DNA of 64,000 bases from Pelagibacteraceae bacterium AG-325-J13 (GCA_003282835.1 QBYL01000003.1:21491-85490), one strand, 5' to 3'; shown: positions 9,601 through 62,690, counted from the stretch's first letter. Notes: generated by a model not told the origin, from the sequence alone. Translations and numbers: made by a program.

Positions 9601-10275
9601 ATGCCAAAAAAGAAAAAAGTCAAAAAAACTAATATTCTTAAAAAATTTAAAAAAAGTAAGATTAAGGTAAATGTAAAACCTCAAATTAAAACTCCAATTA
9701 AAAAAGCAGCATCAACAAACTTAGAAGAAAAACCAGAAATTAAGAAAGTAAAAAAACAACCAACTGAGAAACGTATCTATAATTTAAAAGATTACGTGGT
9801 TTACCCAAAACACGGTGTTGGAAAAATAACAGCTGTTGAAAAAGCAAATATAGGTGAAATTGATATACAGTTTTATAAAATTTTTATTGAAAAAGAAAAA
9901 CTTACTCTTACAGTGCCTATCAACCAGCAATCAAAATTAAGACCTATTTCATCCATTAATCAAATCAATAAATGTGTATCTATTCTTAAAATGAAACCTA
10001 AAATCAAAAGAACTATGTGGAGTAGAAGAGCACAAGAATATGACCAAAAAATTAATTCTGGTAAAATTTATGAGTTAGCTGAAGTAGTAAAAGATTTAAA
10101 TAAGAACACTGATATAATTGCGGATCAATCATACTCTGAGAGACAATTATTTGAAAAAGCTTATGAGCGCTTAAAGTCTGAATTTGAGGCGGTTCTCAAA
10201 GTAAGCCCAGAAGACGTACAAAAAAAAATGGATAAAGCATTAGGGCGAATGCAAATTTCTGAAAGTTTAGAATAA
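9601..10275 (+). CDS. carD: CarD/CdnL RNA-polymerase-binding transcription factor with a Lys-rich N-terminal extension
   Basis: VVYPKHGVG, MWSRRAQEY..KINSG and QSYSERQLFE motifs. Confidence 0.93.
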   Translation: MPKKKKVKKTNILKKFKKSKIKVNVKPQIKTPIKKAASTNLEEKPEIKKVKKQPTEKRIYNLKDYVVYPKHGVGKITAVEKANIGEIDIQFYKIFIEKEKLTLTVPINQQSKLRPISSINQINKCVSILKMKPKIKRTMWSRRAQEYDQKINSGKIYELAEVVKDLNKNTDIIADQSYSERQLFEKAYERLKSEFEAVLKVSPEDVQKKMDKALGRMQISESLE

Positions 10276-10314
10276 AAAAACGCCCTTTTTAAATTGTTTT
10301 TAAAAAGGGCGTTT
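10274..10314 (-). terminator. Perfect 16-bp hairpin terminator, possibly bidirectional, with the stronger U tract on the minus strand
   Basis: aaacgccctttttaaa-ttgtt-tttaaaaagggcgttt; A7 at 10274-10280 gives U7 on the minus strand. Confidence 0.85.
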
Positions 10315-10326
10315 GTAAAAAGTAAA

Positions 10327-10398
10327 CTATCTTCTTCTTCTTCTTCTTTTAGCTTTCTTTTTAGCTTTTTTTGCTTTTTTTCTTCTTCGTTTAGCCAT
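10327..10398 (-). CDS. 23-aa extremely basic protamine-like peptide MAKRRRKKAKKAKKKAKRRRRRR (not in the ORF track)
   Basis: ATG at 10398 and TAG at 10329-10327; SD AGGGAG 6 nt upstream; own promoter, 5' hairpin and terminator. Confidence 0.8.
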   Translation of the reverse strand: MAKRRRKKAKKAKKKAKRRRRRR

Positions 10399-10448
10399 CT
10401 TATTCTCCCTTGTTTAAACAAATCTTTTTGATTCGTTTATTAATTTAA

Positions 10449-10476
10449 ACATTAATTAATTTAAGATTCATGTCAA
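10449..10476 (-). promoter_or_regulatory. Sigma70 promoter of the basic-peptide gene
   Basis: TTGACA (10476-10471), 16-nt spacer, TAATGT (10454-10449); AT-rich sequence upstream; a GANTC site at 10465-10469. Confidence 0.6.
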
Positions 10477-10608: not shown

Positions 10609-12279
10609 TTAATAAAGTTTTTCTAATTGATGTTTATAATTTTTAATTATTTCTTTTCTTTTTAACTTTAAAGTTGGTGTTAACATTCCATTATCAATTG
10701 TAAATTCTTTATCAATTATCACAAATTTTTTTACTTTTTCTATTAATGTTAGACTTTTATTAATGTTTTCTATTATTTTACTAATCATTTCTTTTGTTGC
10801 ATCAGTTTCAACAACAATTAATGCAACTAAATAATTTTTTTTATCACCATATATATAAGCTTGTTTGATTTGATCGCTTAGACATAAAATATTCTCAATC
10901 TTGCTTGGTGATATATTGTCTCCACCTAAATTAACTATAATATCCTTTTTTCTGTCAGTAATTTTTAAAAACCCGTTATTGTCTATTTCACCGATGTCCC
11001 CTGTTTTTAACCATCCGTTATCAATAACTTCTTCAGTAGATTTTTTTTGATTCCAATAACCTAACATTACGTTTTCACCTTTAATTAGAATTTCGCCATC
11101 ACTAGCTATTTTAACTTTATTGGTTCTAAAGGGAGGGCCCACTGTATCAACTTTTACTAAACCCGGTAAATTACAACTTACTACTGGAGAGGTTTCGGTT
11201 AAACCATAACCTTGTAAAGTAGGTAAACCTATAGCGTTAAGAAATTCTCCAATATTACGGTCCAGGGCTCCACCGCCAGAAACGAAAGCTTGAAGTCTAC
11301 CCCCGAATTGCCTTCGAATTTTATTTCTTATCAAAATCTCGCATATATAATTTTGGATTTTTTCTAAAAAGTTAAATTTCTTTTTATTGAGTAATTTTTT
11401 TCCTAAATGTAATGTTAAAAATATTAACATTTTTTTTAATCCCTTTTGTTTTTCAAAATTTATATTTATTTTTGTATAAAGATTTTGATAAAATCTTGGA
11501 ACAGCTGTCATAATTGTTGGTTTTGCATGACCCATATTTGTAATTAATTTATCTAAGCTCTCTGCATAAAAAACTTTCGCTGCTAGTAAAATTTGTATCA
11601 TTTGTACTGTGTGCTCATAAGAATGAGATAAAGGTAACCATGTTAAAAATGTTGGGTCCTTTTTTTTAATTAATGGCTGCAATAATTCAAATGCGCCTTC
11701 ACAATTTGATAATATTCCTCCATGACTTAACATAACACCTTTTGGATTGCCTGAAGTACCTGAAGTATAAATTATACAAGCTAAATTGTTTCTTTGTAAA
11801 TCTAAATTAATTTCACTCTCAAATGTTTCATTAAAAATTTGATCAAAAGTTTGTGAATTTATTTCTATTTTTTCGAACGAAATTACTTTTATACTTGTAA
11901 TAAAATTCTTAATTTTTTTAAGTTGTTTATTGTTTGATACAATAATTAAAGAAGGTGAACAGTCTTTTAGAATATATTCATAATCTTTTTCTGCATAAGT
12001 TGTGAAAATTGGTACTGTAATCCCACCAGAATTCATTATAGCAATATCTGAAATAAGCCATTCTGGTCTATTTTCAGATAGTAATAAAACTCGATCTCCT
12101 TTATTAATTAAACTCTTAATTTTATAAGAAAGTTTATATATTTTATCTGTAACTTCATCCCAATTATAAGTGATATTTTTCTCAGGTTTTAGCCAAGTTA
12201 AAAAAGATTTTTTTTTGTCTATTTTTTCTACTTGTTTAAAATAGAGTTCAACTAAACTATTTAATTTACTTATATCCAT
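10609..12279 (-). CDS. Long-chain-fatty-acid--CoA ligase (AMP-dependent synthetase)
   Basis: IIYTSGTSGNPKGV, QGYGLTETSP, GWLKTGDIG and TPTLKLKR motifs. Confidence 0.92.
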   Translation of the reverse strand: MDISKLNSLVELYFKQVEKIDKKKSFLTWLKPEKNITYNWDEVTDKIYKLSYKIKSLINKGDRVLLLSENRPEWLISDIAIMNSGGITVPIFTTYAEKDYEYILKDCSPSLIIVSNNKQLKKIKNFITSIKVISFEKIEINSQTFDQIFNETFESEINLDLQRNNLACIIYTSGTSGNPKGVMLSHGGILSNCEGAFELLQPLIKKKDPTFLTWLPLSHSYEHTVQMIQILLAAKVFYAESLDKLITNMGHAKPTIMTAVPRFYQNLYTKININFEKQKGLKKMLIFLTLHLGKKLLNKKKFNFLEKIQNYICEILIRNKIRRQFGGRLQAFVSGGGALDRNIGEFLNAIGLPTLQGYGLTETSPVVSCNLPGLVKVDTVGPPFRTNKVKIASDGEILIKGENVMLGYWNQKKSTEEVIDNGWLKTGDIGEIDNNGFLKITDRKKDIIVNLGGDNISPSKIENILCLSDQIKQAYIYGDKKNYLVALIVVETDATKEMISKIIENINKSLTLIEKVKKFVIIDKEFTIDNGMLTPTLKLKRKEIIKNYKHQLEKLY

Positions 12280-12283
12280 ATTT

Positions 12284-12370
12284 TGGTGGGCGAAGAGAGA
12301 CTCGAACTCTCAAGGTATTGCTACCACCGGATTTTGAGTCCGGCGCGTCTACCAGTTCCACCATTCGCCC
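12284..12370 (-). tRNA. tRNA-Leu (anticodon CAA)
   Basis: Reverse complement GGGCGAATGGTGGAACTGGTAGACGCGCCGGACTCAAAATCCGG...GTTCGAGTCTCTCTTCGCCCACCA; long variable arm and encoded CCA. Confidence 0.97.
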
Positions 12371-23615: not shown

Positions 23616-23668
23616 TTGCGCTGATTTAACCATATTGCAAGCGCATAATAAATGTAGCTAAAAAGGGG
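23616..23668 (+). ncRNA. SAM-II riboswitch aptamer
   Basis: tgcgctgatttaaccatattgcaagcgcataataaatgtagctaaaaaggg closely matches the canonical metX SAM-II pseudoknot and lies upstream of metX. Confidence 0.93.
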
Positions 23669-23670
23669 AT

Positions 23671-23696
23671 GCCCAGTTTAGCTGGGCTTTTTTTTT
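23671..23696 (+). terminator. Intrinsic terminator acting as the riboswitch expression platform
   Basis: gcccagt-tta-gctgggc followed by T9, ending 2 nt before the metX ATG. Confidence 0.85.
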
Positions 23697-23698
23697 GG

Positions 23699-24838
23699 AT
23701 GAATAGTAAAATTGAAAATATTAAAAAATTCGATGTTTCAAAACCACTGAAGTTAGATTGTGGCAAAACAATAAATAATTTTCCATTGGCTTATGAGACC
23801 TATGGGAAATTGAATGAAAATAGAGACAATGCTGTTTTAGTTTTTCATGCATTAACAGGTGACCAATTTGTTACAGGAAAAAATCCTATTACAAATAAAG
23901 AAGGATGGTGGGTTACTGCGGTTGGTCCAAATAAGTCAATTGATACAAATAAATATTTTGTTATTTGTGCAAATGTAATTGGAGGATGTATGGGTTCTTT
24001 GGGTCCAAAAAGTACTAACCCAGATACTAACAAACCGTATGGCTTAGATTTTCCAGTTATTACCATTAGAGACATTGTAAGAGCTCAAGAGTCATTATTA
24101 GAACATTTGGGAATTAAAAAACTACTATGTGTAACAGGTGGTTCTATGGGTGGAATGCAAGTTTTACAATTTTGTGCAACTTTTCCAGAAAAAACATTTT
24201 CTGCTATTCCGATAGCATGTAGTTCAAGTCATAGTGCTCAAAATATTGCACTAAACGAATTAGCTCGTCAAGCAATCATGGCAGATCCAATATGGGACAA
24301 TGGAAAATATTTTTTAAAAAATGTGCAACCAAAAAATGGATTAGCTGTTGCTAGGATGGTTGGACATATTAGTTATTTATCTGAAAAAGGTATGCAAGAA
24401 AAATTTGGTAGAAAATTGCAAGAAAAAGCGGACTATGAATTTAGTTTTAATGCCGACTTTCAAGTTGAAAGTTATTTAAGACATCAAGGATATGCTTTTG
24501 TTGAAAGATTTGATGCTAATTCTATTCTTTATATTACAAGAGCGATGGACTATTTTGATCTTTCTAAACAGTTTAAAGGAGGACTGGTAGAAGCTTTTAA
24601 AAATCAAAAAACAAAATATCTAATAATATCATTCTCTTCTGACTGGCTTTACACAACTAAAGAAAATAAGGATATTGTAATAGCACTTAACGCATCAGGA
24701 GCAGATGTTTCATATTCAGAAATAATAACTGATAAAGGACACGACTCTTTTTTATTAAACGAACCTGAGTTTTTAAAAACGTTGAAAAGTTTTATTGACT
24801 CAATGCACGAAAAATTTAAAAATGAAAAAAGAATTTAA
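23699..24838 (+). CDS. metX: Homoserine O-acetyltransferase
   Basis: HALTG, GGSMGGMQ, RFDANS and GHDSFLL motifs; likely ATG at 23699. Confidence 0.95.
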   Translation: MNSKIENIKKFDVSKPLKLDCGKTINNFPLAYETYGKLNENRDNAVLVFHALTGDQFVTGKNPITNKEGWWVTAVGPNKSIDTNKYFVICANVIGGCMGSLGPKSTNPDTNKPYGLDFPVITIRDIVRAQESLLEHLGIKKLLCVTGGSMGGMQVLQFCATFPEKTFSAIPIACSSSHSAQNIALNELARQAIMADPIWDNGKYFLKNVQPKNGLAVARMVGHISYLSEKGMQEKFGRKLQEKADYEFSFNADFQVESYLRHQGYAFVERFDANSILYITRAMDYFDLSKQFKGGLVEAFKNQKTKYLIISFSSDWLYTTKENKDIVIALNASGADVSYSEIITDKGHDSFLLNEPEFLKTLKSFIDSMHEKFKNEKRI

Positions 24839-62590: not shown

Positions 62591-62690
62591 TACCCAACAC
62601 CTATCGCACTAGTGGGCGAACCTTCGCTGACTAGTGTCGACACTCTTGTTTTCAAGAGCACCGCAAAAACTTAGGTATTTGCGGAAAGTC
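62591..62690 (-). ncRNA. Structured ffh 5' leader (ffh RNA motif-like)
   Basis: GC-rich island with three hairpins: ccgcaaa/tttgcgg, ctcttg/caagag, and cactagt/actagtg enclosing gcgaa/ttcgc. An ffh leader motif is known in alphaproteobacteria. Confidence 0.75.

Follow-up and report, generated by a model that had tools for sequence, protein, structure and literature searches.

The closest described counterparts of the gene reported here are small basic proteins of bacteria and the tails of eukaryotic linker histones. The chlamydial proteins Hc1 (HctA) and Hc2 (HctB) are lysine- and alanine-rich and of low complexity, and Hc2 is described with a length of 165 to 237 amino acids, set by the number of its lysine-rich pentamers (PMC2848022). 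In Coxiella burnetii, two small basic DNA-binding proteins, ScvA and Hq1, are enriched in the small cell variant with its condensed nucleoid (PMC4766238), and lysine-rich PAKKA repeats modulate DNA binding by Ku of Mycobacterium smegmatis (PMC3553676). Ribosomes also contain tiny basic proteins, of 24-33 amino acids, that are easily missed by annotation; bS22 has 33 residues, and bL37 does not differ in length between two genera of actinobacteria, where its sequences are 67% identical (PMC10085706). Here we describe a minus-strand micro-gene between carD and an acyl-CoA ligase-like gene in a stretch of 64,000 nucleotides from Pelagibacteraceae bacterium AG-325-J13 (GCA_003282835.1 QBYL01000003.1:21491-85490; hereafter the window, from whose first letter all positions are counted). 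The micro-gene encodes a 23-residue peptide built from methionine, alanine, lysine and arginine only, and it belongs to a family found throughout the SAR11 order.

An earlier note on this DNA had proposed a complete minus-strand transcription unit at this place, and every element that it named was recovered at its coordinates. The open reading frame (ORF) of 23 codons (10330-10398, minus strand; stop TAG at 10327-10329) encodes MAKRRRKKAKKAKKKAKRRRRRR, a peptide with the claimed composition of nine lysines, nine arginines, four alanines and one methionine, a mass of 2993 Da and a charge of about +17.5. A Shine-Dalgarno (SD) sequence, AGGGAG (10405-10410), lies six nucleotides from the ATG at 10398. 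Further upstream on the same strand we read a -35 box, TTGACA (10471-10476), and, across a spacer of 16 nucleotides, a putative -10 box, TAATGT (10449-10454). The 5' untranslated region is predicted to fold into a hairpin of 10 base pairs with one G.U pair and a 5-nucleotide loop (10415-10439, minus strand). The 7-mer CGAATCA (10429-10435, minus strand) lies about 41 nucleotides past the start of the -35 box, and this position is near the 5' end of the transcript. The unit closes with an intrinsic terminator (10271-10314, minus strand), a stem of 16 pairs at 10278-10314 followed by seven T, which adjoins the carD stop at 10275. This is just the terminator that had been claimed, and it is the sole such site in 1.5 kb, where 0.3 would be expected. 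The whole transcript folds well beyond shuffled versions of itself (z = -6), and the 5' hairpin and the terminator hairpin are present in both the minimum-free-energy and the centroid folds.

The note had also pointed to a long spacer and a rare SD, and both observations hold roughly. The spacer between carD and the ligase gene measures 333 bp, whereas gaps in a crude ORF map of this genome have a median of 44 bp and a 90th percentile of 291 bp. The SD core is found upstream of about 6-8% of long ORFs in this genome against a background of 3-5%, and AGGGAG-N4-8-ATG occurs 16 times genome-wide. The host assembly comprises 0.92 Mb, is 81% complete and has a GC content of 29.6%.

Next, we compared the locus with those of relatives, which are named Pelagibacteraceae or Pelagibacterales (SAR11) and include 'Candidatus Pelagibacter ubique HIMB058'. 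An ORF of 20-25 codons running from ATG to stop and preceded by an SD was found at 20 of 20 loci of the window's genus (g1). In named SAR11 genomes, the ORF lies 3' of a genus-specific 22-nucleotide hairpin at all 79 uncut loci, which together encode 28 peptide variants of 20-25 amino acids; the cultured strain HIMB058 carries a 24-residue form. A survey anchored on carD across the order (g1, g5, g6, g7, g9, g10 and a sister family) revealed a polybasic ORF convergent with carD at 60 of 60 loci. The arrangement of SD, ATG, basic ORF and stop that the note had described in one genome is thus kept in its relatives. In other alphaproteobacteria, of which 28 families were sampled, the 1.5 kb or so around carD contained no ORF of this kind (151 genomes were screened for carD, among them the unpublished G292, from which no locus was taken and on which no claim depends). 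One genome of 64% GC has a 110-residue 'basic ORF' close to carD, which was an off-frame artefact.

The differences between relatives carry a coding signature. All pyrimidines (C or T) of the micro-gene run stand in phase, as GCN, ACT or CGN. Nucleotide differences are either synonymous (GCT/GCA, AAA/AAG, CGA/CGT/AGA) or exchange lysine for arginine or alanine for threonine. Runs of six to nine A are expected to slip by single bases, and despite such runs the length changes are always whole codons. The codon phase, the whole-codon insertions and deletions and the synonymous changes indicate selection on the protein, and we conclude from the comparison that the micro-gene is no chance ORF, the decisive point being that the ORF is conserved in every relative examined. 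The gene is very probably real and translated. By contrast, an 86-residue minus-strand ORF at 10161-10421, which crosses the micro-gene and continues antisense over carD, is off-frame and unconserved and was rejected as spurious.

These genes form a family across the order. In the window's genus the peptides have 20-25 residues and begin MAKRR; those of g9 and g10 have 22-23, of g7 31 and of g5 36. In g6 the forms of 29-35 residues begin MPKKRKKAAKKT or, in some genomes, MAT, and forms of this length are those of HTCC1062-like Pelagibacter. The rhtB sequence of g6 does not differ from that of NC_007205 (PMC2704228, Additional file 8), which identifies this genus as Pelagibacter proper. In the sister family (f2) the protein has 76-91 residues, with an 11-residue head, MEELKVIFAKA, followed by (K)nAAP repeats of the KKKKAAP type, and a 50-residue metagenomic form of this type was also found. 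A homologue search with the 85-residue form retrieved just two metagenomic proteins, of 50 and 64 residues. Across the family lysine and arginine make up 53-86% of residues and alanine 9-31%; lysine, arginine and alanine are kept, with some threonine or proline, and the basic part is essentially without acidic residues.

The order of ligase gene, micro-gene and convergent carD holds throughout the window's family; by tblastn, the ligase neighbour was found in all sampled genera of that family and not in the sister family. When 18 upstream regions from nine genera and the two families were aligned, TTGAC (18 of 18), CGAATCA (18 of 18), the SD core (GG..A) and the ATG were invariant and kept a fixed spacing over both families. 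A GC-cored terminator lies at the same position in all loci. The orthology that we propose for these genes rests on position, the common upstream architecture and this conserved terminator. All the defining elements, namely carD convergence, the TTGAC box, the CGAATCA hairpin, the SD, the ORF of lysine, arginine and alanine and the terminator, are present in the window. By this comparison the window peptide represents the smallest form of a polycation family that resembles H1 tails and is plastic in length, because the sister family has a protein of 50-91 residues at the same spot, and the lengths of 20-91 residues arise by repeat gain and loss.

How does this family compare with the systems described above? 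Like Hc2, it varies by repeats, and this lysine/alanine repeat variation, shared with Hc1 and Hc2, is a resemblance in kind and not homology. Unlike the chlamydial proteins, the SAR11 forms of 23, 85, 89 and 91 residues match neither of the Pfam models HC1 (PF07432) and HC2 (PF07382), and the micro-peptide is 5-10 times shorter; the window form has no proline and no repeat unit beyond K2-4A, and the host is a free-living oligotroph without a developmental cycle. ScvA is a peptide of similar size to the micro-peptide and is rich in arginine and glutamine. The Coxiella proteins, compared by description only, are likewise small and basic, but ScvA differs from the lysine/arginine/alanine-only peptide in this composition, in coming from a different bacterial class and in its synthesis being tied to a developmental stage. 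The KKKKAAP-type repeats of the sister family resemble the C-terminal tail of eukaryotic H1 and PAKKA tails, whereas in SAR11 the tail is the entire protein, without a globular domain, and the window form lacks proline. The ribosomal proteins eL41, bS22, bL37 and bTHX are also tiny and highly basic, but they hold their length and sequence from genus to genus, whereas the SAR11 family varies in both. The tail-only, SAR11-wide form of 20-25 residues, made of lysine, arginine and alanine, is new within the known class of bacterial H1-like polycations. The earlier note had likened the peptide to protamines and H1-like tails; the likeness in kind stood, and the peptide is no isolated oddity, being the shortest of the forms found across the order.

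Databases and annotations were searched as well. The 23-residue peptide had no Pfam match, no NCBIfam model and no similarity to PDB chains at E up to 10, and the long sister-family forms (85, 89 and 91 residues) matched no Pfam family; neither the peptide nor these forms hit HC1 or HC2 even at E up to 10. A match of the 85-residue form to Pfam PH_35 (E = 8.5) was regarded as noise. Among about 15 billion predicted proteins there was no letter-for-letter copy of any of the 16 variants looked up. As the note had supposed for a stand-alone coding unit of this size, gene callers miss it: the ORF is uncalled in all four ocean-metagenome contigs that encode an identical CarD, and one of these (L215, a Joint Genome Institute gene call) reports the spurious 86-residue off-frame ORF instead. 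The 85-residue form is present in the ESM Atlas among 'hypothetical' clusters, and a feature-based look-alike search with it returned such clusters; in one more, of lower rank (score 0.90), 23% of the members carry Pfam HC2, and we treat this as a lead only. We found no description of the micro-gene in the literature on SAR11 small proteins, nucleoid proteins and intergenic transcripts. In RNA data, five marine runs contained 5-16% of the sampled words, and four of these, at contig level only, spanned carD and skipped the repeat at 10323-10358, which makes them uninformative on transcription of the micro-gene either way. At the locus itself Rfam gave nothing at gathering score, the best match being a PyrG leader (33.8 vs 65), and such sub-threshold matches fall on the terminator and were regarded as chance.

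We propose that a sigma-70-type promoter, a 5'-proximal stem-loop, an SD that is strong and among few in the genome, and a strong terminator could together drive a protein-coding micro-gene whose product would be a disordered 3-kDa polycation with a charge of about +17. This product would bind nucleic acid electrostatically, without sequence specificity, and neutralise its charge. Its target would most probably be chromosomal DNA, in a cell that is very small and has only a short list of nucleoid proteins, and the peptide would then be a tail-only analogue of linker histone H1, chlamydial Hc2 and Coxiella ScvA/Hq1. Across the family charge and composition are conserved and length and order are not, a plasticity that is the hallmark of polyelectrolyte tails. 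We put the probability that a translated polycation binds nucleic acid non-specifically, with DNA as the likeliest target, at roughly 55%. The nucleoid specifically is a more tentative choice, to which we give somewhat less than even odds; of nucleoid and ribosome, we prefer the nucleoid.

Several points weigh against this proposal. The -10 box is weak: the note's promoter, TTGACA-N16-TAATGT, is present in its boxes and spacing, but TAATGT matches the consensus TATAAT at only three of six positions and was not listed by a consensus promoter scan. A/T-rich hexamers occupy the aligned -10 position in other genera, and support for the promoter comes from the invariant -35 box at fixed spacing, not from consensus strength. 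The purine-rich run makes stop codons impossible in two of the three frames, so that its openness proves little, and the case for the gene therefore rests on the phase, the whole-codon length changes and the kept ATG, SD and stop. No hidden Markov model connects any form to Hc1, Hc2 or another family. Furthermore, transcription, translation, abundance and binding target are what we infer, and the composition cannot distinguish between DNA, rRNA, mRNA and polyphosphate, all of which it fits alike. On the side of the proposal, the window genome has two HU/IHF-type genes, and GapR was found above cut-off neither there nor in any of the order's genomes examined, 60 that are near-complete; both points, the missing GapR and the HU genes, are circumstantial.

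CarD is a regulator of rRNA promoters in other bacteria, and this conserved neighbour is one reason to consider that the peptide might be a micro-protein peculiar to this lineage that belongs to the ribosome or associates with it, after the manner of eL41, bS22, bL37 or Thx, seated in an rRNA cleft or bound more loosely, for example in dormancy. Its size and charge resemble those of these proteins, and the expression signals of the micro-gene match those of ribosomal-protein genes in strength. However, the length is 20-36 residues in one family and 50-91 in the next, with 28 variants in one genus, whereas bL37 is constant; the long forms consist of KAAP repeats typical of DNA-binding tails, and neither a similar solved chain (E up to 10) nor an NCBIfam ribosomal model speaks for such a role. 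We therefore consider it unlikely, since a length and sequence that vary freely disfavour a protein fitted to a ribosomal pocket and favour non-specific polyanion binding. The composition alone would suit any polyanion, and polyphosphate, acidic membrane lipids or a role as a released membrane-active or antimicrobial peptide come into question as well, bS22 and bL37 peptides being antimicrobial in vitro (PMC10085706). Such a target appears quite improbable, as the peptide has neither a signal sequence for secretion nor a hydrophobic face, the micro-gene has no gene for export beside it, nothing in its conserved neighbourhood ties it to polyphosphate genes, and nucleic acids would be by far the commonest polyanions of the cell.

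The conserved 5' hairpin with its invariant 7-mer raises another explanation, in which the peptide would be a by-product and the locus would work at the level of RNA or through its own translation: as a small purine-rich RNA, as a sponge or target of another RNA, or as a sensor ORF rich in lysine and arginine. The candidate partner in Pelagibacter is rhtB, an RNA motif described from 'Candidatus Pelagibacter ubique' (Meyer et al. 2009, PMC2704228). The SD-ATG segment of the g6 micro-gene shares GGGAGCUAAAGAUG (14 nucleotides) with the reverse complement of the apical loop of the rhtB hairpin, and the shared stretch reaches 17 contiguous nucleotides in g6 genomes whose gene starts with ATGGCT. 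The opposite strand of the rhtB hairpin is a perfect mimic of SD-ATG-GCT-AAG; read as a gene start it leads only to unconserved ORFs of 3-25 codons and was rejected as one, and therefore the shared stretch is real and not simply a likeness between two gene starts. Against an incidental peptide, the codon phase, the whole-codon changes and the synonymous differences point to protein-level selection, and in the sister family the long forms show traits of ordinary proteins, for example proline and alanine codons and a hydrophobic head. No same-strand gene lies downstream to be attenuated, only the terminator and then convergent carD; a leader peptide or attenuator was rejected on these grounds, there being a single terminator and no alternative pairing in the fold. 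Moreover, the rhtB hairpin was found in g6 only, and neither the window genome nor 61 genomes of its genus yielded a different antisense partner. We judge a purely RNA-based role to be very unlikely.

The distribution of rhtB bears on how far it could matter. The hairpin (loci L063-L092) was found in one of 11 genera sampled, g6, where 107 of 116 genomes have it; of 10 genomes from the window's genus, none does. In the window genome the nearest match to the rhtB loop is the micro-gene itself, and it is the only one. Four g6 genomes have a loop that is one G short or carries A for G, and their micro-genes keep GGGAG; no compensatory change between loop and gene was seen in this small sample (the comparison left out G135 and G208, where the stretch examined did not include the gene). 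The window genome, at its 81% completeness, has no second locus within three mismatches of the initiation region, sense or antisense, and each of the 61 genomes of the genus has one good match and no second copy. A perfect 14-nucleotide antisense match to the SD region, at C1:183495, falls within an ORF of 356 codons encoded by the other strand, so that its transcribed RNA would be sense, and it was rejected. Together, these comparisons suggest that control by rhtB is at most a Pelagibacter-specific addition and no explanation for the window's gene.

The 5' element contains a further motif. GANTC, the motif of CcrM-type methylation, occurs as GAATC immediately 3' of the -35 box (10465-10469, unstranded) and again inside CGAATCA (10430-10434); the site after the -35 box is missing from a minority of the genomes of the genus. 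CcrM methylation is read by GcrA, and the genome encodes GcrA and a member of the CcrM-type methyltransferase family. Genome-wide, GANTC reaches 0.59 of its mononucleotide expectation, with a density of 2.1 per kb outside long ORFs and 1.6 per kb inside them; against the former value, two sites in 333 bp are not significant by themselves, and we rejected an enrichment at the locus. CGAATCA has 15 copies in the genome where about 92 would be expected. TTGAC-N33-39-CGAATC occurs nowhere in the genome except at the micro-gene, and because no other promoter has it there is no regulon. All genera have a hairpin based on CGAATCA, with a 3' arm that is not constant: it forms a G.U pair where it reads GATTTG and a G-C pair where it reads GATTCG, and in g7 the partner is a different one. 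This variation is easier to reconcile with an RNA stem on a conserved 5' motif than with a DNA palindrome. For the box, two readings come into question, a site of methylation or of a regulator and the start of a stabilising 5' stem-loop. In an extended form of the nucleic-acid-binding proposal the peptide would coat the chromosome as a major counter-ion and act as a bacterial 'protamine'; the GANTC box would couple its synthesis to the cell cycle, and in Pelagibacter rhtB would throttle it. This is doubtful; if it is true, no smaller nucleoid protein is known, and the peptide would in part make up for the GapR that the order lacks.

SAR11 is the most abundant bacterial clade in the ocean, and few free-living bacteria have genomes as streamlined or as thoroughly studied. 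A conserved micro-gene is nevertheless missing from SAR11 annotations and protein databases, and tryptic proteomics cannot see its product. Were the peptide abundant, it would change the nucleoid or ribosome inventory of a cell in which every gene is thought to count, and would offer a minimal natural model for the condensation of nucleic acid by a polycation. More generally, the case shows how gene calling with a length filter conceals an entire class of low-complexity micro-proteins. Direct tests are possible in the cultured strains HIMB058 and HTCC1062.

Other features were noted in the window and at the related loci. The acyl-CoA ligase-like gene, which lies upstream of the micro-gene and is likewise encoded on the minus strand, occupies 10609-12279. 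In the 64-kb window, the only Rfam matches above gathering score were an ffh small RNA (RF01793, 42.4 bits, 62599-62651, minus strand) and a tRNA (12287-12370, minus strand); a SAM-II element at 23616-23701 scored below it. At the sister-family loci L021-L030, a second small hairpin, aaaCCCaaacGGGgggag, abuts the SD about 25 nucleotides before the ATG. Two sister-family genomes have CGCaaatGCG there, a compensatory change, which suggests that the SD is partly sequestered in these genomes; the window's family has no equivalent. The same loci carry two tandem terminators, an AT-rich hairpin with nine T followed by the GC-cored one shared with carD, where the window has one.

The convergent neighbour carD (9601-10275, plus strand) was recognised by the Pfam families CarD_TRCF_RID and CarD_C on an identical product. 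Its open frame encodes 227 amino acids in the window, about 270-320 in g6 and about 165-200 in most other alphaproteobacteria sampled. SAR11 CarD has a lysine-rich N-terminal extension, MPKKKKVKKTNILKKFKKSKIK... (window 9601-9780, plus strand; carD loci L043-L061), and this extension therefore places a second H1-tail-like segment on an RNA-polymerase-binding factor whose gene adjoins the micro-gene.

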